Below are positions 3,985 to 57,849 of a DNA stretch of 64,000 nt, piece after piece. Origin of the DNA: Eledone cirrhosa (lineage: Eukaryota); assembly GCA_964016885.1 (NCBI GenBank), contig OZ024740.1, positions 403,682,001-403,746,000 of the forward strand. The letters run 5' to 3'. The notes beneath the pieces were generated by a model that had not been told where the DNA came from, ran no database searches, and was given only the letters and a program-made list of their open reading frames with translations. Made by a program: the position numbers and the translations under genes. How positions within the stretch are numbered: position 1 is the first letter of the stretch; every line of letters begins with the position of its first letter.

Positions 3985-4441
3985 TAACAAGCGTAAAGAC
4001 ATTCTATAGGGGATTAGTGGAGCATAAGTGCGACGACGCTCTCGGAGAGATTCGAAGAGGACGAACTGGCCAGTCTGTTCGGGAGGACTTTGGTTAACTT
4101 CCAGAGGTATCTGGCTATGGCTAACTTCCAGAGGTATCTGGCCTGGCAGTGCTACCGAGGAGCTCTACAAGTTCGAGACAAAATCTAGAGGCACGGACGC
4201 CCTGGCAGAGATCCTGCCAAAATGACCTGTCCAAGATGCGAGCAGGACATTGAAACCGCCCTGCACGCAATTGTTCAATGCCCTGGAGTGACCGACCTGT
4301 GGCAGTATGTCGAACAGCTACTGTCACGCGTGGGTACGCATCCAGTTGTCAGCCGAGTCCATTGTGAGGATCACTCTGCCGCCTTCATTTAAGAATGAAG
4401 GAGAGGTGGTTTTCCTTTGCCTGGCGGCTATGGCGAAAGAG
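3985..4441 (+). mobile_element. Tx1/L1-clade ORF2 3' fragment, degenerate
   Basis: TFYRGLVEHKCDDALG and the CPRC...ETALHAIVQC zinc-knuckle region match the C-terminus of the 11439-14453 ORF. Confidence 0.75.
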
Positions 4442-6465: not shown

Positions 6466-7123
<658 letters not shown>

Positions 7124-10100
7124 GATATGTTTCTTTTATTTGCCACCAGGGCATCAAAAGTGGGACAAGTACAATGGGGGGAGTTTACAAAACAAGGCGT
7201 CCTCAATAAGGAGGAGGCAATAACAATATATAAAAATAAAATATAACAAAAAATAAGATTTATAACAAAGTCCTCAATAGATAGGAGGCGCCTTGGGGGG
7301 TCGCACGCACCCCCCAAAAAAAGTGTGCAACCCCTTTCCTCGGGAGGACAGAGAAGGGGTGCTCCCTTGGTCTTTCATCTTCCTCACCTATAGTCTGATG
7401 TAGAGTGAAGGCCCATTCACACGGGCCATTCTCGCCACTTTCACCCATCTTTCATAAAAACGGCTGGGGTGCAGCACCTCTCTCTCCATCCTGATCCTTC
7501 TTCCGAAATGATATCGGAAGAAACGGACCAGTTGTTGGCCAGAGAGAAAGGTATCAATGCCCGAGCAGTGTACCAATGCGTGTGCAACGGTTTCCTCGTC
7601 GCACACGCATCTGGGACAGATCTTTTTCGAGGGGTCCCTACCCGGGCGCCCGTGTCTGTAGAGCTTTTCTCGAACGGGCAGAGCCCTTCTGTAGCATTGC
7701 CAGGTCAGGGACCTCTGGAAGTTATCCATGGGTCCCGGGATGAATGTCTTACCGAACAGGTTGGCCAGTTCGTCTTCCTCCATGCCTAGGGCTTCTCTGA
7801 GGGCGTCGTCGCACCTGCTAACCACCAGCCCTCTATAGAATGACGAGGTGGATTCTCCACTGACAGCCGGGTCCGCCTGCCAGAGAGCCGTGAGCGCCTG
7901 GGCACATTCGGTGTGCCAGGCGCCCAGTTTTCTCGGTCTTTGCTTGACCCAGGATTGCAGCTCGGTGAGTGAGAGGAGTCTGGGAAAGGCTCGCCTCACA
8001 AACGGGGCCCACACCGGTTGACCGGAGAGGAATACCTGAAGGTGCCGTAGCCTTAATGCGTGTTTACGTATCATTAGCCACGGCATCCCCAGCCCTCCTT
8101 TCGAAGGGTGTTGACAGCAGATGGATCTCCTACCATAGGAGCCCGCTTCTTCCAAAGGAATTGGAAGAGTGCGCGCTCCATTTTGGCGAGCGTTTCCCTT
8201 GGGCAAGGCACAACGGTCAGGCGGTAGTAGATGACGGACGCTATATAAGTGTTCGCCACCTCCGCCCGACCTTTCCGGGACAGTTTGCACTCGGCCCACT
8301 TCTGGGTCAGTGCAAACACCCTGTTCGTTACCTCACCCCAGTTCTTCTCCACCTGGAGGTCTGGTCCGAACCAGACCCCGAGCAACTTCACCGGGCCCTC
8401 CGTCCAGCGCCCGACGACGCCATCGGAGGGCATCGATCTGCCCCTCCATGTGCCGAGTTAGAGACCGATCGACTTGTCCCGGTTCAGCTTAGCCCCTGTA
8501 AACCTTCGTACTCCTCCAGTAATTTGCCGATCGCCCCGATTTCCGAGGCCGTCGACACCATTACTGTTACATCATCGGCGTAGGCTGACACCGCTTTCCG
8601 CAATCCCGGTTCCAACGGGATGCCCTGCAACAACTCCAACTTCCGCAGCAGTGGATCTAGAGTCACTACATACAGAAGGGAGGAGAGAGGGCACCACTGT
8701 CGGATGGACCGCGCGATTTCGAACGGCTCCGAGAGGTAGCCGTTCACCTTGACCCTAGAGCAGATACGGCTGCTGTGCATGGCATTGATCCAGCCCCTGG
8801 AAACGGGTCCGAAGCCTGCCGCCGCTAGCACCGCATCCAGGTAACCATGGTCGACCCTATCGAATGCCTTAGATTGATCCAAGTTGATCAGGGCCACACC
8901 AAAGCCGGGTTCGTTCCCAACCCTCTCTATGATGTATCGCATGAGGTGGAGGTTGTCGTGGATGGACCTGGACGGGATAGCACATGTCTGCGCATCTCCC
9001 ACCAGGTTGCCCACGACAAGCGCCAACCTCTTTGCTAGCACCTTGGCCAAAATCTGTAACTCTGTATTTAGCAGAGTTATGGGCCTGAAATTATTTATAT
9101 CGTACCCCTTGTTCTCGTCCTTCCTCACTAGCGTGACTACGCCCTTGGCTACAGCACAGGGAATTCTCCCGTTCTGTTGCCAGTTGTAGTAGACCGCCTC
9201 GAGGAGATCGGGGAACAAGTCCGGCATAGCTAGATATAGTTCGTATGGAAGACCATCGAGACCCGGGGATTTGCGTTTGCCGCATTGGCTCAGCACGTCC
9301 TCTATCTCAGCGGCTGAAATCGGCCCCTCGCAGGACTTCGCCTTCCTGTCCGAGAGACGCGGCAGGCCGTCGAGGTATGGACCGAAGTCTACATCCCCAA
9401 CCGGCTCCCCGCCCCTTCCGAACAATCGGGCAAAGTGCTTTTGAAAAGCCTCGCACATCTGCTTAGGTTCAAGGATCACCCGTCCATCCTGGTCTCGCAA
9501 AGACCGGATAGTGGATCTGCTCCCTCTTTTGGCTTCTGTCACGCGGGCCCAGCTAACAGCTTTGGTCCCCTCGTTTCCCAGAGCACGTATTTTGCTTCGG
9601 ACGATGCAGCCTTCGTGTTTCGCGTCGAAGAACTGGCCCAGGGCCGTTCTCAACGCTACCACTCTGGCCACGTCACCGTTCCTAATTGCCTCTTCTACAC
9701 TATCTACCAACTCCCTTTCATTCCTATTTCTATTTGAGGCTAACTCCTTACTAAATTCTATAGAGACTACTCTAATCTCTCTTTTGAGAGATCCCACCAC
9801 CTGCTGTTGACGATGGCGCCCGTCAACCGCTCTTTAACTAAAGTGTTAATCCGGTCCCTGTAAGCCTTACTTGCCGGTAAGGACAAGTTGAGCTTCCAGT
9901 AACCGGGTCCTTGTCTATGAGTTCTGTCAAGGTTGACCATGCAGGTCACTAATTTGTGGTCTGAATAGCCAACCATGCGCATTTTTGGACAACTTAAAAA
10001 GTCATTATACTTAATTCTAACTAAGAACCTATCTAGGTACGACCTAGATGATCCGCTACGATTTGCCCAAGTCCAGGTTGGCGCAGTCGGAAAATCTAGT

Positions 10101-11165
10101 CGATATCTATCGGCCAGGTCAAATCGACCGATTAACCCTTTGAGGCTATTATACCCCTCTCTATCGGGACAGGCCCCTACGTAGTCCCAGCGTGCATCTA
10201 GGATACCATTCTAGTCCCCACTAATAGCAAGGAGCGGGACGTCCCTAGAAAAGTCTCCAGACGATGGAAGAAGTCCGGCCGCATTGACCCGAAAGGGCCG
10301 TAGGCGGCTACCAACCTAAACGCTCCGCCTTTACCACTGCCAAGGTCCAGAACCACTAGTTGACCCTCCGGGTCCAAATGTACTGTCTGTGTTGCGAGAC
10401 CCAGATGTTTTTGCAGAAGAACGACAACCCCACCCCCACCTCCGGGCTGACAGAGAGATGCGTGCATCTCAAAGTCATCAAAGGTGGGGGCCAGCTGTCG
10501 CACGTTGCTGATCCGGGCCTCGCAAATAACCATCACATCTATGCGTTGTGACCTGAGGTCATTTAGAAGCATTGCTTGCTTCCAAGTTGAGCCCAGGCCA
10601 CGCGCATTTAAACAGCCTACTCTTAGCATAGCCATTTTTGTGGTGAAGAGAAAAGGCACTTACCTCTCTGCATCCCGGGTATCGGGCTGCACAATTTCCA
10701 TTAGGGTGGGGGATGGGTTGTTGGGTGGGGTGGTGGTTTGTGGAAGTGTAGGGGTATCAGTGTGTTGTGTGGTTGGGGAGTTTGGAATTGTGTGGGTATT
10801 TGGGGAGGGGGTGGGTAGTTTTTTAGGAGGACGCGGTTAATGGGCCCGACGCAGGGGGGACCCACGTCCTCTTTAAAGTTGTTTTTTAAAGTTTTATAGG
10901 TGTCCTGTGGGGCCTTAATCATTTTGAGGTGGGGGAAATCCCCTGCCTGGGTGAAGTTAGGCCCTTGGGTTTTTATTAGATTGTTGTTGTACACAATGTT
11001 TAACAGTTTTTTGTTTCTTGTGTTTATGTATGTGTATGCATGTTTTTGTTTTTGTGTGGTGTTTTTTGTTTGCTGTTGTTGTGAACTCTTTTGTGTTGGT
11101 GTCAGTGTTATGTTTTGGGGAGGGTTGTTTTCATTTGTGTGTCTGAGGTGTGTTTTCTTTTTTCT
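7124..11165 (-). mobile_element. Tx1/L1-clade LINE copy 1: ORF1 3' part, ORF2 (APE endonuclease, RT, Zn knuckle) and 3' UTR; frameshifted
   Basis: MLRVGCLNARGL APE start (ATG 10635), SDH, GPGYWKLN, RPITLLN, LDQSKAFDRVDH, YADD, CPRC...HALVHC; ~200-bp deletion near 7553; 3' AATAAA then (TA)n. Confidence 0.92.
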
Positions 11166-11167
11166 AT

Positions 11168-14100
11168 ATAGATATGTTTCTTTTATTTGCCACCAGGGCA
11201 TCAAAAGTGGGACAAGTACAAAGGGGGGAGTTTACACAAAAAGGCGTCCTCAATAAGGAGGAGGCAATAACAAAATATTAAAATAAAATAAAATATAACA
11301 AAAAATAAAATTTATAACAAAATCCTCAATAGAGAGGAGGCGCCTTGGGGGATCGCACACACCCCCGAAAAAAGTGTGCAACCCTTTTCCTCAGGAGCAC
11401 AGAGAGGGGGTGCTCCCTCGTTCCTTCCTCTTTTCCACCTACAGGCTTATGTAAAGAGAAGGCCCATTCACACGGGTCATTCTCGCCACTTTCACCCACC
11501 TTTCATAAAAACGACTGGGGTGGAGCACCTCTCTCTCCATCCTGATCCTTCTTCCGAAATGATATCGGAAGAAACGGACCAGTTGTTGGCCAGCGAGAAA
11601 GGTGCCTGACCTCAGTCCTTTCAGACGCGTCCACCATACAACCTCTTTCGCCATGGCTATTACGCACAGAAACACCGCCTCTGCTTCATCTTTGAAGGGG
11701 GGAGGCGGCTTGATCATTACAATAGACTCGGTGGTCAACCGGATCGGTCCCACCCTTGACGGCAGTTGTTCGACATAGCCCCACAGATCGGCTACGCCCG
11801 AGCAGTGTACCAATGCGTGTGCAACGGTTTCCTCGTCGCACACGCATCTGGGACAGATCTTTTTGGCGGGGTCCCTACCCGGGCGCCCGTGTCTGTAGAG
11901 CCTTTCTCGAACGGGTAAAGCCCCTCGGTAGCACTGCCAGGCCAGGGACTTCTGGAAGTTGTCCATAGGTCCCGGGCTGAATGTCCTACCGAACAGGCTG
12001 GCCAGTTCGTCTTCCTCCATGTCTAGGGCTTCTCCGAGGGTGTCGTCGCACCTGCTGCGTACCAGCCCTCTATAGAATGTTGCGGTGGAGTCTCCACTGA
12101 TAACCGGATCCGCCTGCCAGAGGGCGGTGAGCGCCCGGGCACACTCAGTGTGCCAGGCGCCCAGTTTTCTCGGTCTTTGCTTGACCCAGGATTGCAGCTC
12201 GGTGAGTGAGACGAGTCTGGGAAAGGTTCGTCTCACAAACGAGGCCCACACCGGTTGACCGGTGAGGAATACGTAGAGGTGCCGTAGCCTTAATGCGTGT
12301 TTACGCATCATTAGCCACGGCATCCCCAGCCCTCCTTTCGAAGGGTGTTGACAGCAGATGGATCTCCTCACCATAGGAGCCCGCCTCTTCCAAAGGAATT
12401 GGAAGAGTGCGCGCTCCATCTTGGTGAGGGTTTCCCTTCGGCAGGGCACTACGGTCAGGCGGTAGTAGATGACGGACGCTATGTAGGTGTTCGCCACCTC
12501 CGCCCGACCTTTCAGGGATAGTTTGCAACTGGCCCACTTCTGGGTCAGTGCAAACACCCTGTTCGTAACCTCCGCCCAGTTTTTCTCCACCGGGAGGCCC
12601 GGTCCGAACCAGACCCCGAGCAACTTCACCGGGCCCTCCGTCCAGCGTCCGACGACGCCATTGGAGGGCATCGGTCTGCCCCTCCACGTGCCGAGTTGCA
12701 AACCGATCGACTTGTCCCGGTTCAGCTTAGCCCCTGTGAACCTTTCGTACTCCTCCAGTAAGGTGCCAACCGCCTCGATTTCCGAGGCCGTCGACACCAT
12801 TACTGTCACATCATCGGCGTAGGCCGACACCGCTTTCCGCAATCCCGGTTCCAAAGGGATGCCCTGCAACAACTCCAACTTCCGCAGTAGTGGCTCGAGA
12901 GTCAACACATACAGAAGGGAGGAGAGAGGGCACCCTTGTCGGATGGACCGCGCGATTTTGAACGGCTCCGAGAAGTAGCCGTTCACCTTGACCCTAGAGC
13001 AGATGCGGCTGCTGTGCATAGCAGTGATCCAGCCCCTGAAAACGGGTCCGAAGCCTGCCGCCGCTAGCACCGCATCCAGGTAACCATGGTCGACCCTATC
13101 GAACGCCTTAGATTGATCCAAGTTGATCAGAGCCCCACCAAAGCCGGGTTCGTTCCCAACCCTCTCTATGATGTATCGCATGAGGTGGAGGTTGTAATGG
13201 ATGGACCTAGACGGGATAGCGCATGTCTGCGCATCTCCCACCAGGTTGCCCACGACAAGCGCCAACCTCTTTGCTAGCACCTTGGCCAAAATCTGTAACT
13301 CTGTATTTAGCAGAGTTATGGGCCTGAAGTTACTTATTTCGTCCCCCTTGTTCTCGTCCTTCCTCCCTAGCGTGACTACGCCCTTGGTCACAGTACAGGG
13401 AATTCTCCCGTTCTGTTGCCAGTTGCAGTAGACCGCCTCGAGGAGATCGGGGAACAAGTCCGGCATAACTAGATATAATTCGTAAGGAAAACCATCGAGA
13501 CCCGGGGATTTGCGTTTGCCGCATTGGCTCAGCACGTCCTCTATCTCAGCGGCCGAAATCGGCCCCTCGCAGGACTTCGCCTCCCTGTCCGAGAGGCGCG
13601 GCAGGCCGTCGAGGTATGGACCGAAGTCCACGTTCCCAACCGGCTCCCCGCCCCTCCCGAACAGTCGGGCAAAGTGCCTTTGAAAGGCCTCACACATCTG
13701 CTTAGGCTCAAGAATCGCCCGTCCATCCAGGTCTCGCAAAGACCGGATGGTGGATTTAGTTCCACTGTTGGCCTCTGTCACGCGGGCCCAGCTAACAGCT
13801 TTGGTCCCCTCGTTCCCTAGAGCACGTATTTTACTTCGGACAACGCAGCCTTCGTGCTTCGCGTCGAAAAACTGGCTCAAAGCCGTTCTCGACGCTAGCA
13901 CTCTGGCCACGTCGCCGCTTCTAATTGCCTCTTCTACTCTATCTATTAGCTCCCTTTTTTTCCTATTCCTATCCGCAGCTAGAACCTTACTAAATTCTAT
14001 CGAGACTACTCTAATCTCTCTCTTTAGAGATACCCACCACCTGCTGTTGACGATCGCTCCAGTCAACCGTTCCTTAACTAACGTACTAATCCGATCCCTG

Positions 14101-14800
14101 TAGGCTCTACTTGCCGGCAAGGACAAGTTGAGCTTCCAGTAACCGGGGCCCTGTCTATGCGTTCTATTAAGGTTGACCATGCAGGTCACCAACTTGTGGT
14201 CTGAATAGCCAACCATGAGCATTTCTGGACAACTTAAAAAGTCCCTGTCCTTATTTCTAACTAAAAATCTATCTAGGTACGACCTAGATGATCCGCTGAG
14301 ATTTGACCAAGACCAGGTTGGCACCGTCGGAAAATCTAGTCGAAATCTATCGGCCAGGTCAAATCGGCCGAGTAACCCCTTGAGGCTGTTGCACCCCTCT
14401 CTATCGGGACATGCCCTGCATAGTCCCCACGTGCATCCAGGATACCATTCCAATCCCCCACTAAAAGCAGGGAACGGGACGTCCCTAGAAAAGACTCCAG
14501 ACGCTGGAAAAAGTCGGGCCGCTCTGTCCTAAAAGGGGCATATGCGGCTATCAGCCTAAAGGCTCTACCTTCACCACTGCCAAGGTCCAGCACCACCAGT
14601 CGACCCCCTGGGTCCAAGTGAGCTATCTGTGTTGCAAGGCCCATATGTTTTTGCAGCAGAACGACAATCCCACCCCACCTCCGGGCTGACAGAGAGATGC
14701 GTGCATCTCAAAGTCGTCAAAGGTGGGGGCTAACTGTCGCATGCTGCTGATCCGGGCCTCGCAGATAACCATCACATTTATAGATTGTGACCTGAGGTCA
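11168..14800 (-). mobile_element. Tx1/L1-clade LINE copy 2, 5'-truncated within the endonuclease, head-to-tail with copy 1
   Basis: Close paralogue of copy 1; its 3' UTR end at 11168-11250 is nearly identical to 7120-7200. Confidence 0.92.
11439..14453 (-). CDS. LINE ORF2 remnant: C-terminal APE half, reverse transcriptase and Zn knuckle (1004 aa open)
   Basis: YLDRFL...SDH, KSPGLDG, QGCPLS, YADD, GGLG, CPRCVCDEETVAHALVHC; N-terminus frameshifted. Confidence 0.88.
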   Translation of the reverse strand: MEWYPGCTWGLCRACPDREGCNSLKGLLGRFDLADRFRLDFPTVPTWSWSNLSGSSRSYLDRFLVRNKDRDFLSCPEMLMVGYSDHKLVTCMVNLNRTHRQGPGYWKLNLSLPASRAYRDRISTLVKERLTGAIVNSRWWVSLKREIRVVSIEFSKVLAADRNRKKRELIDRVEEAIRSGDVARVLASRTALSQFFDAKHEGCVVRSKIRALGNEGTKAVSWARVTEANSGTKSTIRSLRDLDGRAILEPKQMCEAFQRHFARLFGRGGEPVGNVDFGPYLDGLPRLSDREAKSCEGPISAAEIEDVLSQCGKRKSPGLDGFPYELYLVMPDLFPDLLEAVYCNWQQNGRIPCTVTKGVVTLGRKDENKGDEISNFRPITLLNTELQILAKVLAKRLALVVGNLVGDAQTCAIPSRSIHYNLHLMRYIIERVGNEPGFGGALINLDQSKAFDRVDHGYLDAVLAAAGFGPVFRGWITAMHSSRICSRVKVNGYFSEPFKIARSIRQGCPLSSLLYVLTLEPLLRKLELLQGIPLEPGLRKAVSAYADDVTVMVSTASEIEAVGTLLEEYERFTGAKLNRDKSIGLQLGTWRGRPMPSNGVVGRWTEGPVKLLGVWFGPGLPVEKNWAEVTNRVFALTQKWASCKLSLKGRAEVANTYIASVIYYRLTVVPCRRETLTKMERALFQFLWKRRAPMVRRSICCQHPSKGGLGMPWLMMRKHALRLRHLYVFLTGQPVWASFVRRTFPRLVSLTELQSWVKQRPRKLGAWHTECARALTALWQADPVISGDSTATFYRGLVRSRCDDTLGEALDMEEDELASLFGRTFSPGPMDNFQKSLAWQCYRGALPVRERLYRHGRPGRDPAKKICPRCVCDEETVAHALVHCSGVADLWGYVEQLPSRVGPIRLTTESIVMIKPPPPFKDEAEAVFLCVIAMAKEVVWWTRLKGLRSGTFLAGQQLVRFFRYHFGRRIRMEREVLHPSRFYERWVKVARMTRVNGPSLYISL

Positions 14801-14965
14801 TAAATAGATAAATATACACGGTGTGTATGATTGTGTATAGAAGATTATATTAATAAGAGGAATTCCAACTTTGTCTGATTTACTCGTTTTATTTACAATC
14901 CTTTAACATTTATAATGGTATTATAATGAAATAGTATGATAGAATATTAAATTCTAAGTGTTAAT

Positions 14966-17145: not shown

Positions 17146-17850
17146 CTACCTCCCCGGGTCATTATGGGGTTTGAGGGCGAGGTAAGTCTTACGTAATCGG
17201 TGTTTACATGCAGTAACCAGTTCATCTTTCTTGTTTAGGAGTTGGTCCGTCGAAAACAGCATTTGTAAAGTTTCCTCCGAGCATAAATTGCACGGACGGC
17301 GTCCTCCCGTGTAAGAGTTGGCTCTGGACAGTAATTTCCAAGTGAGATCATAGTTGATGTTGTTGTCTTTGAGGTCCCATATGTGGCCCGAAAGTGTAGT
17401 GGCGTGACGCCGGGCCGGGTATCGGAAGGTATGTCTGTGTTGGTATAGCCGGGTCTTGAAGTCACATGCGGTTAATCCTATATAAGCTTTGTTGGAGGTG
17501 TCAGTGCTCACGTTGCACTGGTAGATCACATTACGGTATCTGCATCTGTTGTCGAGGGGGCAACTGGATCTATCAGGACAGTTGCACCTCCTGGTCGGCT
17601 CTCCACTGCTATTTAGGTTGTTTCTTCCATCGGGGTTGAGTTTTTTGTTGTTGGAGGAGACGATGTTTTGTGCGAAGTTAGGTGTAGTGCTGTAAGAGAG
17701 TTTGATGGTATTTTTGTTAATTATGTCGTGGTAGCGGTGTTGAGGTGGGAACTGTTTTTCAATGAGCCTAAAGAAAATTTTCCCGATGGGAGTTGTCACC
17801 TCGGCGTTGTGGGGAGGATTGAACCATGTTACATTGCGTGAGCGGCGGTG
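17146..17850 (-). CDS. Penelope C-terminal GIY-YIG endonuclease domain
   Basis: VTWFNPP, KLSYS, CNC...CPLDNRC, NVIYQC...YIGLT...FKTRLYQH, CNLCSEE, LLNKKDEL..CKH. Confidence 0.9.
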   Translation of the reverse strand, partial: HRRSRNVTWFNPPHNAEVTTPIGKIFFRLIEKQFPPQHRYHDIINKNTIKLSYSTTPNFAQNIVSSNNKKLNPDGRNNLNSSGEPTRRCNCPDRSSCPLDNRCRYRNVIYQCNVSTDTSNKAYIGLTACDFKTRLYQHRHTFRYPARRHATTLSGHIWDLKDNNINYDLTWKLLSRANSYTGGRRPCNLCSEETLQMLFSTDQLLNKKDELVTACKHRLRKTYLALKPHNDPGR

Positions 17851-18015
17851 TCGCCTGCTGGTTCCGCTAATGGGAGCTGGACAGTAGGATATTTCCTCCC
17901 GCTAATGGGAGCTGGACAGTAGGATATTTTCCCCACCAATTTGCCATCACAGATTTATTACTAACTTGTGATGTGACCAATCCTGGTGATTATCTCTTTG
18001 ACCATATATGGAATT

Positions 18016-21777: not shown

Positions 21778-24700
21778 TGCTTTCTTTATTGACCACAAGT
21801 GTTTACACAATGTAAGACATTAAGGACAATACAGGACAATACAGGATGGAACAAATGGGCATTTCTGCGTGTAAAAAAAAAAAACAGAGGATGTAACAAA
21901 AAAGAAACAATGAAAAATTCCCCAATAGGGGGGAGACTTCCGAGGGACATTCGTGGAGAAAGCCCATTAAAAAGCCACGGTGACCCTGACCACCAGGGCA
22001 AGTGCCATCTCACAGTTTTCCACCTTCAATTTACAGACACATACTCAGAGTAGGCCCATTCACTCGGGTCATGCTTGCCTCTCTCACCCATCTTTCAACA
22101 AAATGCTGGGAAGAGAGCACTTCCCTCTCTACCCTGAATTTCAAATGAAATTTGAAAAAGTTAATCAGAGCATCACCGAAGAGGTAAGTGCTCGTCTTCA
22201 GCCCTTTCAAACGCGACCACCACACTATCTCTTTCGCCATAGCCACCTGACAGATAAAAACTGCCTGCCCTTCCTGGCTAAAGAAAGAGGGCAAGGAAAT
22301 ACTCACGATAGACTCAGCTGATAACCGGATCCGTCCTACACGCGACAGCAGGTTCGACATAAACCCACAAGTCAGCAATGCTCGGACACTGGCCGAGTGC
22401 GTGCAGGACGGTTTCGTCGCCCTGCGCGCATCTCGGACATGCCCGGCTGACGGCATCTCCATGCCTGTAGACTTTATCCCGAACTGGCAAAGCTCCTCGG
22501 TAGCACTGCCAGGCCAGGGATTTCTGGAAGTTGTCCATAGACCCCGGCCTGAAAGTTCTTCCGAAGAGATAGGCTAGTTGATTTTCGTCGACGCCTAGAG
22601 TTTCCCCAAGTACGTCGTCGATCTTCCCCTACACTAATCCTCTATAGAACGCCAAGGTGAAGTTTCCAACGATCACATTGCCCGACTGGTCGAAGGCTAT
22701 GATAGCCTGAAGACATTCCAGTCTCCAAGCGCTCCTTCTCGGTCTTCGCTTGACCCAGGACTGCAGCTCCGTCAAGGAGACAAGCTGGGGAAAGACGCGT
22801 CTAGCAAACGGCGACCACACCTGATCACCGTCGACGAAGAGGTGGAGATGTCGTAGCCTACTGCGTGTCTGCGCATCATCAGCCACGGCATGCCCAGCCC
22901 TCCACGTAGCGGGTGTTGACAGCAGATGGACCGTCTGACCATTGGAGTGCGTCCCTTCCACAAAAAGCGAAAGAGCAAACGCTCCAGCGCAGTCAGGCGA
23001 GGCTTAGGACAAGGCACGACAGTCAGGTGGTAGTAGATGACGGACGCGATGTACGTATTCGCCACCTCCGCACGACCTTTCAGGGATATCTTCCTCTCTG
23101 CCAATTTCTGGGTGAGAGAAGCCACCCTGCTCGTCACCTCGTCCCAGTTTTTGTCCGTCCGGAGGTCCGGACCGAACCAGACCCCTAGCAATTTAACCGG
23201 TCCGTCCGTCCAGCGCCCGACGACGCTGTTGGACGGCAATAACCTGTCTCTCCAGGTGCTGAGCTGCAGGCCCACCGACCTTTCCTGGTTGATCATTGCT
23301 CCTGTCACCGCTTCGTATTCTCTTAGTGTAGTGCCGATCGCCTCGATGTGTTTGGCGTTCGACACCACTACGGTGGCATCGTCCGCATATACTGACACAG
23401 ATCTTCCGCATCCTAGTTCGCGTCCCCCCCCCCTCAACGTCTCCAGTTTGTGCAGTAATAGCTCGAGAGTCAATACGTACAACAGGAACGAGAGGGAGTC
23501 ATCCTTGGCGGACGGTGCGCATGATGTTGAACGGTTCCGAAAGGTGACCGTTCACTCTCACCACAGAGCAGATGTCGCTGTGCATGGCAGCGATCCAGCC
23601 TCTGAAGACTAGACCAAAGCCAGCCGCCCTCATGACTGCCGCCAGATAATGATGGTCGACCCTATCGAAAGCTTTGGACTGATCTAAATTGATCAAGGAC
23701 CCACCCGTGCCAGGTTCCCTAGCTACTCTCTCCACGATGTATCGTATGAGGTGGAGGTTGTCGTGGATGGATCTGTCTGGAATGGCGCATGTCTGCGCCT
23801 CTCCCACCAGACCACCAACGACAAGCACTAACCTCTTTGCTAGCACCTTGCCAAAATCTTAAACTCTGTGTTTAGCAGCGTTATGGGCCTGAAATTATCT
23901 GTTATGCCCCTTGTTCGGATCCTTTCTCAGCACCCCCACCGCTCCTCGGTTCACAGAGCTAGGAATTCTCCCGTTCTGTTGCCAGTTGCAGTAGACGTCC
24001 GCCAAAGGCCTCCGAACAAGTCTGGAATCAGTATATAAAGTTCATAGGGCAGACCATCCAAACCAGGCGATACACCCCTTGTGCAGCCAGTCATTGCCTC
24101 TCGTACTTCAGCGGCTGTTATCGGCTTTTCGCAACAGCTGAGCGAAGTGTCGCTGAAAAGCTTCACACATTTGCCCTGGATCGAATAGCATTCACCCGTC
24201 GAGGTCCACCAAAGACCGGATTGTGGCTTTGTTGCCACGACACGCCTCCGCCACTCGGGCCCATTGAACAGCTTTCGTCCCCTCGTGTCTGAGAGCACGC
24301 ACCCTAGCTCTGACAACGCAGCCTTCGTGCTTTGCATTGAAGAATTGGTCAAGGGCCAATTTCGCCGCAAGTACGTCGGTCGCGATGCCTTTACTAAGTG
24401 CCTCGTCTAATTTTCTAACTAGTTCTCCCTCTGCTCTATTTTTCTCTATTGCTAAAGCATTACTAAACCTAATTGACTCTATTCTAATCGCTCTTTTTAG
24501 AGCAAACAACCATTTGTTGTTGTCGATGGAGCCCGTCAACACCCGCTTAACTAATTCGCTAATCCGGTCACTGTAGACCTTGCGCGCTGTTAATGACGCG
24601 TTTAGCTTCCAGTAGCCAGGTCCCTGTCTATGAAACCTATCTAAGTCAAGCACACAGATCACGAATTTGTTGTCCGTGTAGTCGACTATTTTGAAATGTG

Positions 24701-27631
24701 GACAGCCTATGCTAGACCTATCTATTTCCCTACAAAATACCCTATCTAGATATGATCTGGATGACCCGACGCGGTTTGTCCATGTCCACATTGGCACATT
24801 CGGGAAATCCAGACGGTACCTGTCAGACAGTTGAAACCATTTGAGCAGGTTTGCGAGGCTTTTACACCCTCCTCCCCTATCCGCTAATCCCACACTGTCC
24901 CAGCGTTCATCTAAGATTTCGTTCAAGTCGCCTACTAACACTAAAGAGCGGGACGTTCCAAGAAAAGTCTCCAGATGCCGAAAGAAATCAGGCCGCCTTG
25001 CTCCTGTCGGGGCATAGTCGGCCACTAGCCTGAAAGCTTGCCCGTCTCCGCTGGTCACGTCCAGCACCACCAACTTACCTTCTGGGTCCAGGAAGATGGC
25101 CCGTATGGCGAGATCCAAACGTCTCCGAAAAAGCACAGCAACTCCTCCCCCCGATCCAGGACAGTTGGAAGATGCGTACACATCGTAGCCGCCGAAAACC
25201 TGTGCGAAGGCTCGTGTTTCGGAGATTCTAGTCTCGCTGAGATTCTGAGGTCGTTGAGCAGGTGGCTCTGCTTCCAAGACGATCCCAGGCCCACGCATTT
25301 ATGCTGCCTATTCTGAGAGAGGTCATGTTGAAAAGGAGTGGAAAAGATGGGAAAGACCACTTACCTTACTTCTCGTAGAGGAAGGATGGTTTCTTCATCC
25401 TTCTCACTGCTTGTGGTCTCCTCCGGAAGGATGTCCTTATAAATCCTCCTGGAGAGTGTTTGTCGGAAGTCTCTGATGTCTTTGGGGAATTTTTGTTTTA
25501 GTGTCGTGTACGTTTTCTGTGTGATGCGAGTGATTTGTATGTGTGGAGGTGGTGTGAATTTTTGGGGTGTTGTGTAGTGTGTTTCTGTGATGCTGGTGTT
25601 GTGTTGGATGTAGTGTAATAATTGGTTGTTGTTCAAATTTAATTGTTTCTACTTTAGGCAGAAGGCCAGCAATTACCCAGTGCATTACTGGTACTTTAGT
25701 TGTTGTTCAAATTTAATGCTGTGTAGTGTGTATCGTTTTGGTTGTTTTGTTTTGTTTGAGTTTGTTGTGCGTTTGTTTCTGTTTCGCTTTTTGGTGATTT
25801 TTGTGGTATTGGTGGTGTTGGGGTTAATGATGGTGATGGTGTTGGTGTTTGTGGTGATGGGGCTGGTGATGCTGGTGTGGGTGGTGGCATAGCTGTCTTA
25901 ACTTTTTTGTTTGTTTGCTTATTTGATTCCCCCTGCATTTTGTTTTTGGAGGGAGAAGGAAGAGAATTTTTTCTTTTTTGGGTTCTTTTTTTTTTCTTTT
26001 TTACTGATATCGTTTCCCACTCCTCCTCATCGTCACAATATGTCTCCAGTTGGGATAGGTCGGGAGTGGAAAATCCTCCACATGCGTTGGTTTTAGTTGT
26101 GGCGTGGTGGATTGTGGAAGCGCTGGTGCTAATTCTGGCGCAGTGGGTGGTGGTGGTGTTGGTTTTGCTACTGTTGCTGCTACAGTTGCTTCTGTTGTTG
26201 CTGCTATAGTTGTTGCTGCCATTTCTGCTGCTGGTGGTTTTGATGGTTGAGTCACTGGGGTGGGTAGGTGAGATGGCCTCAACTTTTTAGCCTGAGGGCA
26301 GAAAGCCTTTAGGTGGGTTCCTTCGCCACAAACGACACACCTAGGCCTTCTACTCCCAACGATTACGGTGAGGTGGTTGCCGTCATTGAGGTCTATCACC
26401 TCTGGAATTTCCGCAATGTTTTTTTGGTCCGCTTGGATCAGGAGCTCCATCCCAGATCCGGACCAGTTCTCCTGCTTTTCGTTTGTTACCTCAATTATTT
26501 TCGTGTTGTCCTCGATTCCGGCGAAGACAGCCATTAGCCAGGGAATTTCGATGGCCGGAGGATCGTGGGTCACCCTGACCTTCACGAGTCTCTGGCCACA
26601 ACAGCTTGGGACGAGTGTGAACTTATCACTTCTTAATTGGGCCATAGAGTGCTCTCTGGCTTCCTGTCGGGTTCCAAAGAACACGTTCACGGTTCCATAT
26701 TTCTGCCCACGTCTGATGTGGGATTTTTTCGCCCACACATGTCCCAAAGCTTTTTGTATCTAGGACTCGAATGTCCGTTCCACTCGGCGTGATTTTGTGT
26801 TTATCGTCCGATATGACAGGGTGCATAGGCGCCGATGCTCCATTTTATTAGCTGTGTGTGTGTGTGTGTGGGGGGGGGGGGCTTACCTTGTAGCCGTCTT
26901 TTTTTTACCATTCCCTTGGATTCATTTAATTCATCCTGGCTTACTTCGATTGTTTACGCTTTTCTTGGCTGCTTTGGCAAACGACACATTTTGTTTTACG
27001 CTGGTGTTGATGTTGTTGTTGTTATTCTCATTGTTGTTGTTGCTGTTGTTGTTATTGTTATTTTTGTTATTGTTATTTTTAGTTTCAGTTGTGGTGGTGG
27101 TGGTGGTGGTGGTGATGATGGTGTCAGTGGTGCTCGGTGTGGAAGAGTCGATTCTGGGTGAATCCATTTCGATGTCACGAAATAATAATTTTTTTTTTGT
27201 TTCCGTTGTCGCTGTGGTGGTGGTGGTGGAGGTGGCGGCTTTAACACCTGCAGTTATTGGTAATGGCGGGAAATGAATGTATGCATGTGAAAAATTTAAA
27301 TTATTGCCACTGCTTATATTTTTAGTGTTGGCAACCGTAGTAATGTTTACAATGGTGGTGTTGGTGTGAGGTGTTAGTTTGTGAGGAAGGCTGTCAGCTT
27401 TGTATGGCTGAGAGGCGTCCATGTTTTTTTTCAAAGAACGTTTTTGTTTGATAATTATGAAAGTTTAAATTTTGGGCTCAAGGCCCCAATATTATTTACT
27501 GTCCTTTTCAGAAAGTAATATATGTGAACTTATAGACACTTAACAACAAAAATTTTCTACCAATTTGAAACAACTGAAAACAACAAACCTTTGCGGAGAT
27601 CACGATAATACGATTTCCTACGTAGGTCGCC
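21778..27631 (-). mobile_element. Tx1/L1-clade LINE copy 3, near full length and decayed (ORF1 with CCHC knuckle, ORF2 APE-RT)
   Basis: ORF1 CVVCGEGTHLKAFC; ORF2 ISETRI, LVGDLN, GPGYWKLN, DQSKAFDRVDH, YADD, CPRC...HALGQC; (TAA)n at both ends; SINE fragment at about 25640-25700. Confidence 0.9.
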
Positions 27632-33852: not shown

Positions 33853-34201
33853 ATTTTATACCAAACTACAATTATTCAAAAGCAACAGATAAATTTATTC
33901 AACAATATCTTATATACGCTTAAAATCTTTTTTTTAAACATCTATCATTCAACTCACACACAATTACATTTTGTGTATAACATATTTACACGTTTATTGA
34001 GTGGAAAAAAAAACCACATAGGGATTTTTGGCCAAACAACTTGAAATTGCTGACAAGCGCGCTTTCAACAAACTGTGAGTTATTTATTTGCCGTTCGTTC
34101 TCCCATTTTTCCCCCTGCGGAACGCAGACAGTTTTCAGCCTTATACTTTCAAAGGCAATTTTGCTGTAGAAGTAATTTTCACCCTTTCTTTTTCATATAA
34201 A

Positions 34202-37200
34202 ATGCCACCTAAAAAGAGAAGTCGCCTCGGTCGCCATACCGCGCCAGCGGCGGCGCAGAGGGCGATTACAGCAAACGAGTCCCCCGAGGAAACTGCTTTA
34301 AGACTTTCACAGAGCGCCTTACGTTCAGCGGAATGCAGAGCTGCTGAAAGTTTTCAACAACGCACTGCACGCCTAGCCAAGATGGCTTCATACGACGCCT
34401 CGAGACGTGCTGCGATGTGCGATTCAGAGCGGGCGATACGCCATTCCCCCCAAAACGCTTCTACTGCTACTTCCAGAGCTTCAGAGGGCCCGGAAAAAAG
34501 GTCGACTCGCCTGAATAGAAACGCTGCTGCTACTGCTGTTTCCAGGGCTTCAGAGGGCCCGGAACAAAGGGCGGCTCGACTGACTAGAAACGCTGCAGCT
34601 ACTGCTGCTTCCAGGGCTTTGGAAGGTTTGGAACGGCGGACGAATCGCCTTGCTAGGAACGCTGCGTCTATGACTGCTTCATGGCTTCTGAAGATGCAGA
34701 CGGGCGCTCCATTAGGATTGCAAGGGTGGCTTCTGCTACTGCTGCGAGAGCTTCCCACGACCCACAGGAGCAACATTCTACGTTGGAGCGGAACAGTCGA
34801 CGACAAGAAGCTGCCCGCGGTGTGACGAGCCCCAACAGCCCATACTGACACCTACGGGCTTTCAAGTATGAGCCCAACGTTAACTACTCGATGCGTGCCG
34901 ACATAAATATAGGGGAAATGCGATTCAATTGCAAATTCTGCAATGCTAAAAAGTGGGCTGGGGAGCCACCTGCAATGTGCTGCTTAAACGGTAAGGTCAG
35001 CTTGCCCCCTCTTGGGGAACCACCAGAGCCTTTGAAGGAATTACTTACTGGTTCTACCTCAAGGTCATCCAATTCCTTCAACTCATCAGGAAGTACAATT
35101 GTGCGTTTCAAATGACTTCTTTCGGGGCTAACGTTGTCGGAGAAAGTGGTTGGATGCCTACTTTCAAGGTTCAGGGGCAGGTGTACTATCTTATTGGGTC
35201 GCTACAAAATTGCAAGCCTTCGTTCCTTCAAATTTACTTCATTTCTAACTACAGTAGGCTAGTTTATGCGCGGTTCGGCGTTATTCCAACACCTGCAAAC
35301 ACTGACGCTGACACTTTTGAAAGGGACGTGCTGCTCGGTCTTCAAAACCTGCTTCATGAGCACAACAGTTATATTCGCAGTTTCAAATACACATTGGAAA
35401 CAAATCCTTCACCAAACTTCACCATTGTCATCGATGCTGACAAAAGACCATCTGGGGAGCACGCACGCCGTTATAACGCTCCATCGTGCAATGAAGTGGC
35501 CGTAGTTATCCATGGTGAACAGCACAATAAGCAAGACATAGTTCTTCAAAGTCGTGACAGTGGTCTTCGACGTATTAATGAGACGCATCGTTCATACGAC
35601 GCCCTGCAGTATCCCCTTCTTTTTGCATACGGAGAAGACGGGTACCATTTCGGCATTCCTCAGCGCAAACCAAACGAGCCCACTGCTGCGACATCTAAAA
35701 CTGTTTCATGCATGGCTTTATACTCATACCGCTTCATGACGAGGCCTAACGATTTCAGCACCCTACACAGGTCACGGGAACTGTTTCACCAGTTTGCAGT
35801 TGACATGGCTGCAAAGATGGAGACGAAGAGACTGTGCTTCATAAAATTGAATCAGAAGCAGCTGCGCTCAGACTCCTACATCCATTTGCGTGACGGCATC
35901 AGGAATGACACTGACCCCCGGAACATCGGCAAAATGTGCATTCTCCCCTCAATCTATACGGGGGGGGGGGGGCTGTACATGCACGAGTGCACACAGGACG
36001 CTATGACGTTCGTTCGGCCTTTATTCATCACGTTTACGTGTAACCCCAAGTGGGTTGAGGTTACGCGGGAACTTATCCCAGGGCAGCAGTACTGCCATCG
36101 GCATGATATTATTGCCAGGGTTTTCAGGCAGAAGCTGGCTAAGCTAATTGATCTAATAAAAAAGGGAAGGTTTTCGGGCTTGTTAGGTGCCACATGTATA
36201 CTGTTGAGTAGCAGAAGAGAGGGTTGCTACACGCGCACATTTTGGTGTGATTGGTCATCAAAATAGACCCTACAGTTCTAGATGACGTCATCGCAGCGGA
36301 AATACCGGACCCCGTTGTTGACCGGCAGCTGTACGACATTGTGAATGCATACATGGTGCACGGTCCGTACGGTCCCGGTTTTCAGGAGTTCTCTTCATGC
36401 CACAAGGACCATGTGTGCACTAAACGATACCCAAAGAGGTTAGTTGAGGAGATCCACACCGGCGGCGACGGATACCCACTGTACAGACGAAGGCGGCCTG
36501 AGAACGGTGGATTCACTATTACGTTACAGGGTCATCAAGTTGATAATAGGTGGGTGGTCCCGTACTGTCCATTTCTGATGAAAACTTTCAACGCTCATAT
36601 AAATGTGGAGTTCTGTCATTCAGTGAAGTCGATAAAGTACATATGTAAATATGTTAACAAGGGTTCCGACGATGCCATGTTCGGCCTTCAAAACGACAAT
36701 AGCAGGGACGAAGTCTCGGAGTACTTGGCAGGTCGATATATCAGCAATGGTGAATCTTTTTGGCGGATATTCGGGTTTCCAGTTCACCAAAGGCACCCCG
36801 CCATCATACAACTAGCGGTTCATTTGGAAAACGGCCCGCGGGCTTACTTTACTGAACAGACTGCTGCTCATTTGGCGGCCAATCCAAAAGAAACAACTTT
36901 GATTGTTTTTTTTACGCTTTGCCAAATTGACATATTTGCAAAAACACTTTCATATCCTCAGGTCCCGTCCTACTACGTGTGGTCAAACAACACTTGGGTG
37001 CGTAGGAAGTCAGGTCAGGATGTTGAAGGACATCTTGGTGTCAAGTTTGACAGCTGTATAGGAAGAGTGTACACTGTACCTCCCAACCAGCATGAGTGTT
37101 TTCACCTGCGCATTCTCCTCCATGAGGTTTTTGGCCCACAAAGCTTTCGAGACATAAGAACTGTTGACGGTGAATTATGTGATACTTTCCGGGAAGCCTG

Positions 37201-38415
37201 CTTTAGGCATGGCCTTTTGGAGGATGATTCACAATGGGGCGCCACTATGGCAGAGGGCGTTTTGTAGAAATCTCCTAAAAGACTAAGATCGCTTTTCACT
37301 ATTCAACTCGACTTGGGTGATCCGGCCTCTTTATGGCTTAGCTACAAAGATTACATGTCTGAATATTTCCTGCGTCACGCTCAGTTGCTAAACCCATCGA
37401 TGGAGGTCGGGTACAGTGACCTCATTTACAACAGGGCGCTGCTTGAAATCGAAGATACTGTTCTCGATATGGGCGGTAGTGCGTTGGCGGTGTATGGCCT
37501 ACCTTCAACGTTATTTCCAAGGGGACTAGATCTGATGCAGAACGTGCGTGTCTTAAGTCATCCGCATTGTGGCCCTTGGTGAAGACACTGAAACTTCACA
37601 CTAACATGCGTGCACATATGCGAGGTGATATCGCATCAGCAGCATTTTCTCACACCCTCCTTGCACTTGGCGAAGGCGTTTTGCCCGGGGATGAAAAGGG
37701 TAATATTGCCATCGACTCACTTTGTACCGTTGTTAGTACGCCTTCTGATCTCAGGGATGCAGTGTTCCCATATCTCCAAGCAAATTATCAGAATATGGAT
37801 TGGCTTGCCCAAAGGGCTATTCTGGCCCCGAGGAATAAAACTGTTAACCATATTAATGATCAAATGCTAAAACTTATTCCTGGAGATGGCTACGTATATA
37901 AGTCTATCGATAGAACTCCTGACCCCGAGGACGTCATCAACTATCCAATAGAGGTACTAAATTCCTTTGAGCCCCCCGGATTACCCCCACACATTTTGAA
38001 ACTTAAAGTTGGTGAGCCTATAATGCTCATTCGAAATTTGGTTCCGCCGAAACAATGTAATGGCACACGTTTGGTCGTTAAGTCCTTAGCTCCCAATCTG
38101 ATTGAGGCCACGATAATCACAGGGTGCGGTCGGGGCAAGGTTGTGCTCATACCGAGGATGCATCTTTTCCCATCAGGAGCAGACCTACCTTTCACATTTC
38201 GGAGGTCCCAGTTCCCGGTCAGGCCATGCTTCGCAATGTCAATTAATAAAGCGCAGGGGCAAACACTGTCTGTCGCGGTAATACATTTGGGGGAGCCATG
38301 TTTCTCTCATGGTCAGCTTTACGTTTGCTGCTCGCCTGTCGGCAGTAAGAGTGATGATTTCGCGTTCGTTCCGCAAGGAAAAACAAAAAACATTGTGTAC
38401 AAGGAGGTTTTATAG
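34202..38415 (+). pseudogene. Helitron RepHel transposase (Zn finger, HUH Rep domain, Pif1-like helicase), frameshifted
   Basis: CKFCNAKKWAGEPPAMCCLNGKV; FITFTCNP; VE*QKRGLLHAHIL; KYICKYVNKG; LHTNMR; RAILAPRN; CNGTRL; FAMSINKAQGQT...FSHGQLYV. Confidence 0.92.
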
Positions 38416-42759: not shown

Positions 42760-44602
42760 ATTGAAATTTCCGTTGGAAACAGAAAAGGTCATAGAAATGA
42801 AGAGTGTTCTATGTAAGTATCAGAGCAAAATTTAATGTATAAAAATCAATACAATATAATTACCTCATTACCAGAGGTTTCCCGAATGAAGCGAATACGA
42901 AATAAACGACTTCATTCGTTCGTCAGACGAGGCAATATAAAACATGGGCAAATACTTAGAAAAAACACATCAAGAAAATCAAAAAAAGATATAGATAAAT
43001 GAAATAGAAATTGAAATATATAAAAATCTATCAAGAAATATAGTTAGGTGTGTGTATATGTATGTATATACGCTCCCAGATGTGCATATATGTATATGTG
43101 TACATGTACATGTATAGTGAGAAAGTGTGCGTAATTCTAAAATAGGGCAAATGTATCTATATGTCTGTATTATACAAACAGAAATGGTTACATCGTAAAT
43201 ATACGAATATGAAGGCGCGCGCATAAAACGCCTGGACACTCGTACGCTTAGGTGCGGAAAGAAAGGAGGTAAGGGAGTGTAATAATTAAAAGAAAAGGGT
43301 CAGTCTCGATATATTTATAAAAATATAATAACGATAAATTAGAAAGAAAAAATTAAAGAAAACAAAAAAGGGGGGTATATACATACACAGACACGCGTGT
43401 CTCACAAAAGAAATGTAAAAATAATTATGCTTATATAAACACGCGCACTTACACTTCCATACGTTCGATACGTATATACACACACACACACACACATACC
43501 TATACTCACGCATATAAACCTGTTTACATGCCCACGTATGAAACTGAGTAAGTAAAAAAAGGAAGGGGGGAGAAGAAAAAAGGAACAAAACATAAAACCG
43601 AGATGTCAAAAACACGGATATAAAGACACGTACACATACGCATAATATATACATACACACACACACAAACACCTGTACACACACACACATATACACATAC
43701 ACACACACATATACATACACACACATACACACACGCACGCGCGCGCACATACGTAGTCACTCATGTACATATATAAAAAGTATACACACATTAAGGCGTT
43801 CAGCCATATTGAAATGTGGATAAATAAGTACAAATATAAAATTGTAAGATAGGCTGCGCAAAAATAAAATAAAAATGAAAATATCTGGATTGAAAAACAC
43901 AAAAGACATGTGTAATCAGTTAGTGGAGGAAAAGGGGAAGTAAAAGAAGGGGAAGTAAAAAATAGAAAATAGGAAGTGGATCGGAGAATAAAGGGGGGGG
44001 GGGAAATGTGAAGTAAAAATAAATAAAAGTGAAAATAAATGAAATTATTGACAAGGATAAAAATGAAAGTAAGTCAGAAAGGGTAATTAAAAAGAGAATA
44101 ATAAGAGTTTATGGAGGATAAGTATCTGAAAGTGTGTTAAGTTTATATGAGCTGGAAAGCAGGTGTGATTTCATGTGTGGGCAACTGGTGAAAATTTCCG
44201 TCTTTGTGTTCAGGCAGGTCTTTGGTGATTTAAGATTTTGCAATATCCAAAATTTTTCATTTATGCAGAGCGTGCATTTTCTTGTTCCTCTAGCATATTT
44301 TTTAGATTGGTTCAAAATTGACCAATCTAGTTTATATTGGATGCCTTGGTCTTTCAAATCCCAAATTCTGCTAGCCAGAGCTGTTGTAAATCTTTTTTCT
44401 GGATGTCGAAAGGATGCGACATGTGAGTAATAACGCGTTTTGAATCTGTCTTGCGTCATACCCACATATCGTTCACTGGTGGCTGGATGGTTGTTGCTGA
44501 TGGTTGTCACTTTAGCCGCATATACAATGGCTTTGGTGTTGCATTTACCTTGTAATGGGCATTCACTTTTGATTCTACAGGAGCAAGTTTGATTTTCTCT
44601 AG
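42760..44602 (-). mobile_element. Penelope family D 3' fragment (GIY-YIG, 3' UTR and hammerhead)
   Basis: 44109-44600: CSC...CPLQGKC, IVYAA...YVGMT...[17 protein letters not shown]...CPH; hammerhead downstream on the same strand. Confidence 0.82.
42863..42932 (-). ncRNA. Canonical type I hammerhead ribozyme
   Basis: CCTCGT-CTGACGA-ACGAATGAAG...CTTCATTCGG-GAAA-CC TCT GG-TA-ATGAGG; GUA triplet; all three stems pair. Confidence 0.85.
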
Positions 44603-44684
44603 GTATATATATACATATATATATATACATATATATATATATACATATATATATATACATATATATATATACATATATATATAC

Positions 44685-44715
<31 letters not shown>

Positions 44716-44774
44716 CATATATATATAAATATATACATATATATATATAAATACATATATATATACGTACATAC

Positions 44775-44809
<35 letters not shown>

Positions 44810-45209
44810 CATATATATACATATATATATACATATATATATACATATATATACATATATACATATTCAAATCAACAGACAGCGAAAGACGCGTTCCGAG
44901 TTGTCCGACAGACAACCTTTTCCCCCACCCCGGAAAAAACCCCAGTTGATGGATGTGAATCCGAAATATATAGGGACTATTAAATCTCTCCCAAGGTAAC
45001 TCTCTCTCTTGTGTTGTTATTATTATTTTTATTCTTTTACTCTTCCCTTCATTCTACACATCTCACACATCTTATACACACCACGCATCTCAACGTACAC
45101 CCACTTACATATCTCTCTCTCCACCACCGGACCTTGTTACCCGGAGATTTACCCATTTGCATTGTCGAGGTTTCCAAACGACTTATAAATATTTACTATA
45201 TACATATAT

Positions 45210-56621: not shown

Positions 56622-57649
56622 TTAAAATAACAGATTAAACTTTAAGCAAAGAATCGCTGCTTTCACCCTTAACGGGATCTTCTGAAACTAACAAAGTCAA
56701 TCTGTAAACGCAGAAGTGGATATTTCAAAAAACGTTGCAACCGGAGGAAGACAGGAAGACGATACTTTGGTTCGTGGAAACGTTCCCTTCACAAAACATA
56801 CAGGTAATATATACTTACCTATGCAAATAAGTAATGGTATAAACATAACATATACTTAGCTACCACATCAAGACGTAAAATATCCACGTATAGATCGTAC
56901 TATCCGTTAGGGTATAATGTGGGGCTGTAATACAGGAAAGTGTTGTGCAATTTATGTTTACAAGCCGAAATTGCCTCAAATTTTTTGTTTAAGATGTGGT
57001 TTGTGGCGTAGAGTATTTCCAGGGCCTCAGCGCAGAGGTCACATGGTCTAGTATTTCCGTTATACGATCTAGCCCTAGCTAGGATCTCCCAATAGATTCA
57101 AGCAGCGTCTTTACATGCATACCCATTCTTTTCGTTACCCTCTAAGAAGGAATATGACGTCACTTTCAGCTTATATCCGGAGTCTAAAAGACAACCACGC
57201 CCAATATAAGTTACACTGGGAGATCCTAGCGAGGGCTAGATCGTATAACGGAAATAAAAGACCTTGTGACCTCTGCGCCGCTGATGCCCTGGAAATACTC
57301 TATGCCACAGACCACATCTTAAAAAAAAATCTGAGGCAATTTCGGCTTGTAAACATAAATTGCACAAAACTTTCCTGTATTACAGCCCCACATTATACCC
57401 TAACAGATAGTACGATCTATACGGGGATATTTTACGTCTTGATGTGGTAGCTAAGTATATGTTATGTTTATACCATTCCTTATTTGCATAGGTAAGTATA
57501 TATTACCTGTATGTTTTGTGAAGGAACGTTTCCTAGAACCAAAGTATCGTCTTCCTGTCTTTCTCCGGTTGCAACGTTTTTTGAAATATCCACTTCTGCG
57601 TTTACAGATTGACTTTGTTAGTTTCAGAAGATCCCGTTAAGGGTGAAAG
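56622..57649. mobile_element. Penelope family B 3' end as a ~1-kb fold-back (GIY-YIG C-terminal remnants, pLTR hammerheads in both arms)
   Basis: 56659-57092 is inverted at 57215-57649; WEILARARSYNG..RPCDLC remnant; CAGAAGA hammerheads at 56640-56689 (-) and 57620-57649 (+, cut by the gap). Confidence 0.8.
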
Positions 57650-57849
57650 NNNNNNNNNNNNNNNNNNNNNNNNNNNNNNNNNNNNNNNNNNNNNNNNNNN
57701 NNNNNNNNNNNNNNNNNNNNNNNNNNNNNNNNNNNNNNNNNNNNNNNNNNNNNNNNNNNNNNNNNNNNNNNNNNNNNNNNNNNNNNNNNNNNNNNNNNNN
57801 NNNNNNNNNNNNNNNNNNNNNNNNNNNNNNNNNNNNNNNNNNNNNNNNN
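57650..57849. other. Assembly gap
   Basis: Run of N. Confidence 1.

Follow-up and report, generated by a model that had tools for sequence, protein, structure and literature searches.

A conserved splice-donor motif and a predicted RNA clamp around ORF2 in L1/Tx1-type LINEs from Eledone cirrhosa

Results

Three LINE copies in the window

The window, a stretch of 64,000 nucleotides from Eledone cirrhosa (contig OZ024740.1), carries three copies of AGGTAAGTG on its minus strand, at 10657-10665, 25358-25366 and 58135-58143. All three belong to L1/Tx1-type LINEs. Markov models of orders 1-3 for the window give an expectation of 0.12-0.28 occurrences per strand; the plus strand holds two further occurrences, both in unrelated sequence. 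The motif matches the 5′ splice-site consensus. Reading of the sequence bears out the arrangement described in the original prediction: the motif stands at these positions, spacers of 21, 31 and 32 nt separate it from the ORF2 ATG in copies 1, 2 and 3, respectively, codon 5 of ORF2 is AGA in every copy, and the corresponding GT..AG spans are 42, 52 and 53 nt.

Copy 1 (7131..11163; minus strand, as for all features of the three copies) is a family-A element with EN, RT and zf-RVT domains. It is a dead copy, being truncated from the 5′ side within ORF1 and frameshifted. Its donor, AG|GTAAGTG, would be cut between 10664 and 10663 and contains the ORF1 stop TAA (10660-10662), which is shown to be the stop by intact relatives. 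The ORF2 start codon lies at 10633..10635 and the ORF2 stop TAG, a possible distal acceptor, at 7388-7390. A 5′ arm at 10636..10671, comprising the ORF1 end, the donor and the pyrimidine spacer, is predicted to pair with the element's own 3′ arm at 7341..7390, which consists of the TAG followed by 47 nt of 3′ UTR (duplex energy −31.0 kcal/mol). A second family-A copy (11178..14801) stands in tandem upstream, truncated just inside ORF2 and lacking the junction. Copy 2, of family C2, has its donor in phase 2 of ORF1, the ORF2 ATG at 25324-25326, the ORF2 stop TAA at 22031-22033 and a predicted 3′ arm at 21984..22033 (−29.3 kcal/mol). Copy 3, of family D type, has its donor in phase 1 and the ORF2 ATG at 58100-58102. 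It is interrupted by a gap of 200 N at 57650-57849, which cuts it early in ORF2, and it has no 3′ arm in place. The inverted 3′ end of a related copy lies at 61761-62342 on the plus strand.

Other mobile elements share the window. Helitron remains with STPR, Helitron_like_N and PIF1 helicase domains occupy 34079-38415 (plus strand), and fragments of Penelope-like GIY-YIG endonucleases occur at 17146-17901 (minus), 44109-45053 (minus), 53218-53940 (plus) and 56921-57407. The sequence AGGTAAGT at 17180, 56820 and 57490 falls in Penelope-like fragments.

Identity of the elements

The ORF2 of an intact copy (L035) matches Pfam PF03372, PF00078 and PF13966, corresponding to an N-terminal APE endonuclease, a reverse transcriptase and a C-terminal zinc domain. 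The best solved-structure match of ORF2 is human L1 ORF2p (E 8e-48), ahead of R2. The upstream ORF1 has a visible CCHC motif, for which the Pfam zf-CCHC match is weak (E 0.05, below cut-off). Together with this CCHC ORF1, the 5′-truncated copies, the 3′ poly(A) signal and the simple-repeat tail place the elements in the L1/Tx1 type. The repeat target preference of the Tx1 clade is also apparent in the copies seen: these are flanked by (TCTA)n or (ATT)n and often stand in tandem. Families A, B, E, G and J lie in (TCTA)n microsatellites and C, D and H in (ATT)n, as judged from 7060-7135 and 11150-11185 of the window and from other genomic loci, and different subfamilies can be stacked in tandem at one site.

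Family A is represented in the genome by 2,441 3′ ends, 738 junctions and 355 5′ ends. Intact relatives of copy 1 encode a 593-aa ORF1 that stops at the TAA within the donor motif, and because many genomic copies keep the 1,153-aa ORF2 frame open, the family must be young. Young intact families in general number hundreds of copies with open ORF2 frames of ∼1,150 aa. The nearest named protein comes from Argonauta hians. A protein word search with ORF2 residues 1-260 and a metagenome scan with one protein each returned no match, and viral contigs yielded no relatives. In the tree of subfamilies and distant relatives the latter are unlabelled, with no labelled Tx1 reference among them.

Conservation of the donor

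ORF2 starts were gathered through searches, from the neighbours of matches and from 20 blind 10-kb stretches, giving 149 and later 214 starts in a sample biased towards the queried families. Twelve representatives (A, B, C, C2, D, D2, E, F, G, H, H2 and J) were distinguished, together with an old copy, I. For J, H2, D2 and F a single complete copy was available in each case, and copies truncated within the spacer were dropped. ORF2 DNA identity is 68-85% among nine representatives and 96% between C and C2.

When the subfamilies are aligned over the junction, a check proposed at the outset, the donor core G|GTR(A/G)GT proves to be kept in all 12 representatives. Positions −1 G, +1 G, +2 T, +5 G and +6 T show no variation across 8/8 subfamilies, whereas columns −15 to −4 are variable. 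The forms encountered are AG|GTAAGT, GG|GTGAGT, CG|GTAAGT, AG|GTAGGT and GG|GTAGGT, and the variants GTGAGT and GTAGGT remain inside the splice consensus. In each of nine elements the donor is the best, or tied-best, donor match. Its position relative to the ORF1 reading frame varies, with phase 2 in A, C, C2, E and G, phase 1 in B, D, D2, F, H and H2, and phase 0 in the single J copy. The ORF1 stop that follows is TAA, TAG or TGA depending on the subfamily, and indels alter both phase and spacer length (28-45 nt) while the five donor columns stay fixed. Because the core is kept in all three phases, neither an ORF1 residue nor the stop codon accounts for it, and it is the nucleotides that are selected. 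As judged from these alignments, the donor motif is a conserved RNA-level signal under selection.

This conservation does not extend to the whole clade. A strong donor near the ORF2 start was found at 3 of 43 distant L1/Tx1-like loci, a set from which 37 of 80 loci lacking a usable ORF2 start had been excluded, versus 17 of 763 background windows. Pan-clade conservation was therefore rejected, and the donor arrangement is lineage-restricted. One distant L1/Tx1 relative on a metagenome contig (L294, ∼3985-4000) has AAA|GTGAGT overlapping its ORF1 stop TGA and shows no predicted helix. A copy with AG|GTATGG that is open into ORF2 (L081) turned out to be a point mutant of family E.

Genomic copies and the proposed intron

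The original prediction held that splicing from the donor to the AG of ORF2 codon 5 would remove 42-53 nt, including the ORF1 stop, and fuse ORF1 to ORF2 in frame. The frame is as proposed in C and C2, with YAG as the acceptor, and in A and E, with AAG, but not in the phase-1 families, copy 3 among them. ORF1 of copy 3's family ends in ...HDQGK* (GGT AAG TGA); since its donor is in phase 1, a join to codon 5 would give one codon and then a stop. The acceptor of copy 1 is the AAG anticipated for it, a form shared by several subfamilies, while YAG at this position is confined to C, C2 and D-type copies. In family G codon 5 is CGA, which leaves no acceptor AG. The codon-5 AG is explained by the conservation of Leu-Arg codons.

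Retrotransposons copy RNA into the genome, and a spliced RNA should therefore leave genomic copies that lack the segment. In the search for such copies, 0 precisely spliced junctions were found versus ∼5,260 unspliced ones, among them 0 short-gap copies versus 738 in family A, 0 versus 3,406 in C/C2 and 0 versus 585 in D/F. The C/C2 set contains one unrelated deletion in which the donor is retained, and 9 further donor-anchored matches inspected in these families were not spliced. Under cis preference (PMC5860796), an RNA translated into ORF2p should itself be the template for new copies, which makes this absence count against the fusion. The short fusion intron is thus largely refuted by the genomic sequences, and we consider it scarcely tenable.

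Joins of the donor to other acceptors were sought with donor-anchored patterns, that is, the sequence after the exon end where it differs from the consensus. These are exact-match patterns, which miss older, mutated copies, and those for family A left out G followed by non-T. Family A gave 6 and 4 matches, all of them small local changes, and family B (534 junctions) gave 9 and 8 with no precise splice. None of the matches inspected was spliced in C/C2 (39/39, 30/73, 9/9 and 3/3), in D/F (3/3) or in E (21/21, a family with no denominator). From the 3′ side, 3 matches versus 2,441 family-A 3′ ends were all point mutants, and no ORF2-less copy was among them. Six sequencing runs of unrecorded kind contained no GT..AG joint at the donor among the joints inspected (15 of 238, and 9 of 9 at the family B junction); read depth in these runs increases towards the 3′ end as expected of genomic DNA and has no bearing on expression. 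Since exact patterns overlook some copies, and since an ORF2-less RNA would go unseen in the genome under cis preference, the absence of such copies limits skipping of ORF2 rather than dismissing it.

One family-B copy (L195; L247, G000:C3:364829166, minus strand) has the donor joined 1 nt off a CAG in ORF2, with GT microhomology. It was rejected as a splice and classed as a deletion; the event may represent a microhomology deletion or an imprecise splice. In two subfamilies whose ORF2 ends in TAA (L169 and L182), a strong acceptor-like tract with a T-run and ACACGCAG lies 162-182 nt past the ORF2 stop, and no copy was found spliced to this 3′ UTR site.

A predicted long-range helix

In nine subfamilies, the segment from donor position −8 to the ORF2 ATG is predicted to pair with the first 50 nt past the ORF2 stop, with energies of −34 to −48 kcal/mol that 0-8 of 500 shuffles reach. 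An element's own 3′ arm is the best of ∼400-510 windows in 7/9 subfamilies (B and E being the exceptions) and in 3/3 examined subsequently. Matched arms give −42.1 kcal/mol versus −31.8 kcal/mol for arms swapped between families, an outcome given by 1 of 40,320 permutations of 8 families. With flanks of 100-200 nt the pairing persists in 8/9, and in family J the helix loses to local folds. The own partner ranks third or better in 11/12 subfamilies versus 0/23 distant L1/Tx1-like elements of metagenomic origin. The C/D/F/I group aligns over 28 pairs, in which 152 of 166 cells can pair and 4 pairs are changed on both sides and 9 on one; covariation is modest by column, and the other group could be aligned over 3 pairs only. 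In these statistics, as in those on phase, the subfamilies are related by descent and are not independent. The two arms co-vary by subfamily, and the clamp that they would form is well supported as a prediction from sequence.

In the predicted fold the start and the stop of ORF2 come to lie side by side, and the outer end of the helix covers the donor. The partner of the donor varies by family, and positions +2 to +4 of the donor are unpaired in A and H. With partner bases that differ or are absent, pairing does not explain the conservation of the donor.

A separate, local structure is seen in copy 3 (58113-58141, minus strand) and family D, where part of the spacer is almost perfectly complementary to the donor and would form a 9-bp hairpin with it. 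Such a hairpin is present in all folds, but it exceeds spacer shuffles only in D (4/150) and weakly in C (12/150), and it was rejected as a general feature. An Rfam search gave a single sub-threshold match.

Additional donor-like sites occur near the 5′ ends of the elements. Within 100 nt after the flanking microsatellite, GTRAGT is present in 6 of 18 rows (P 3e-4); only 10 of the 18 represent genuine 5′ ends, and the motif is present in 5 of those. Donor-like GTRAG(T) lies 30-85 nt from the 5′ end in L035 (2461-2530) and also in L034, L081, L130 and L135. In family A, 67 nt of AT-rich sequence and then TTTTGTAG come after the site; this intron-like stretch of the 5′ UTR, which could be lost with both ORFs left intact, is retained in 355/355 copies. 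These observations fit donors that serve for U1 docking, or else donor-like promoter elements.

Discussion

Sequence comparison indicates that the signal is real and that the intron proposed for it is wrong, and it predicts a clamp. The alternative offered in the original prediction, a U1-binding site, appears to be the reading that survives. By analogy with the donors of foamy virus and EVD discussed below, we favor, tentatively, a role in which U1 snRNP docks on the donor, the RNA that serves as template for new copies stays unspliced, and pairing with the first part of the 3′ UTR masks the donor once transcription of ORF2 is complete. While the 3.4 kb of ORF2 are being transcribed, the donor would be free and U1 would restrain early 3′-end formation. 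The 50 nt past the ORF2 stop would emerge ∼200 nt before AATAAA and then pair with the spacer and donor, displacing U1 and blocking splicing. With U1 released, the full-length RNA carrying both genes could be polyadenylated and exported. In this RNA the fold would bring together the start and the stop of ORF2 and draw the poly(A) end towards the ORF1 stop, and translation of ORF2 would begin at its own ATG. A donor kept in three phases, arms that co-vary and genomic copies that are unspliced all speak for U1 docking. The proposal is weakest with regard to poly(A) signals, which show no excess near the donor and would leave little for U1 to suppress: ORF2 contains 10 versus 9.9 expected, and an apparent excess before the donor (22 versus 10.1) was rejected because it vanishes against synonymous shuffles (13 versus 11.7).

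Skipping of ORF2 follows close behind as a possible, somewhat less probable, explanation. The donor would be joined to an acceptor that coincides with the ORF2 stop or lies beyond it, so that the reverse transcriptase gene as a whole becomes a conditional intron, an ORF1-only mRNA is produced and the co-evolving clamp, by blocking the splice, sets the ratio of the two RNAs. ORF2 does end in an acceptor-like TAG, as TAG|G or TAG|N, in 7/9 subfamilies, at ranks 1-19 of ∼260 AGs by a crude score, yet the G of this TAG also pairs in the predicted helix, confounding the signal, and the pyrimidines before it are no richer than the codons require (1/12 at P 0.01 after synonymous recoding). In 6 of 11 subfamilies, which are kin, the join would rebuild an ORF1 stop within one codon (expected 3.0, P ∼0.03). 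These stops arise from different sequences and in both phases, and they would speak for real skipping and against a donor used for U1 alone; C, C2, D and G, conversely, have no early stop after the join. For C and C2, whose ORF2 ends in TAA, the strong acceptor is instead the one in the 3′ UTR, 162-182 nt past the stop. The ORF2-less junction would lie only ∼250 nt from the 3′ end, yet no such copy was found among 2,441 family-A 3′ ends, nor in B, C, D/F or E, an absence that strict cis preference would equally predict. Moreover, a two-gene LINE RNA already yields ORF1p in excess. The splicing of shGAG in the Arabidopsis element EVD provides an analogue (PMC5580714).

It is unlikely, in our estimate, that function resides in the helix itself and is exerted in the cytoplasm, by folding the poly(A) end to the ORF1 stop against NMD and looping ORF2 for reinitiation, with the donor as a by-product or a site for some other factor. 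The energy, swap and rank statistics of the arms would suit such a role. A poly(A) tail folded near a stop suppresses NMD (PMC2689704), and SART1 depends on RNA structure for ORF2 translation, with looping raised for L1 (PMC5972666). Ribosomes at the ORF1 end and at the ends of ORF2 would, however, need to melt the helix, and the GT, +5 G and +6 T that are invariant in three phases go unexplained where partner bases differ or are unpaired. Both ORF2 skipping and a cytoplasmic role of the helix are compatible with U1 docking, and the three are not mutually exclusive. That the motif is a neutral ancestral leftover is very unlikely: the tree gives all subfamilies a single common ancestor, and their ORF2s are still ∼70% or more identical, but five columns stay fixed amid scrambled flanks and amid indels that alter both phase and spacer length.

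How the RNAs of two-gene LINEs escape early polyadenylation, splicing and NMD, and how ORF2 is translated, are standing questions. The donor and the co-evolving arms around ORF2 would offer a precise, mutable handle on them, and the young intact families allow testing. If ORF2 skipping were true, a clamp that closes only on a complete ORF2 would switch between the two-gene RNA and an ORF1-only mRNA.

A literature search, with supplements and Repbase reports outside its scope, returned no description of the donor or the clamp. A paper on Octopus vulgaris repeats lists active L1-Tx1 families, and its main text does not contain ‘splic’ (PMC13282606). Microsatellite LINEs of the Tx1 clade, such as Kibi, Koshi and crocodilian Tx1, share two ORFs, a zinc knuckle in ORF1, an EN-RT ORF2 and insertion into microsatellites with our elements (PMC4494074). 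They differ in that a donor combined with a clamp was not found for them in the literature searched, just as none of the 23 distant relatives has the helix. The Arabidopsis Ty1/copia element EVD resembles our elements in having a conserved donor at the end of its structural gene, and roles in both splicing and anti-termination are ascribed to that donor (PMC5580714). EVD is an LTR element with a polyprotein, however, whose short intron and early termination are seen in RNA, whereas the present elements have two separate ORFs and yielded no spliced product.

Human L1 is likewise a LINE that keeps a conserved, rarely used donor, for which sequestration in structure has been suggested (PMC5860796). 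That donor, known from SpIREs, lies in the 5′ UTR and overlaps a RUNX3 site, and ∼2% of copies are spliced, as against 0 versus thousands here. The donor of foamy virus offers a close parallel to the reading that we favor: U1 bound to the major splice donor suppresses polyadenylation, and RNA structure blocks U1 (PMC3694450). A U1 action apart from splicing, and a structure that hides the donor and so allows polyadenylation, are what we propose by analogy. The foamy virus structure is a local fold in the LTR of a retrovirus, whereas that predicted here is a helix of 3.4-kb range around a LINE ORF2.
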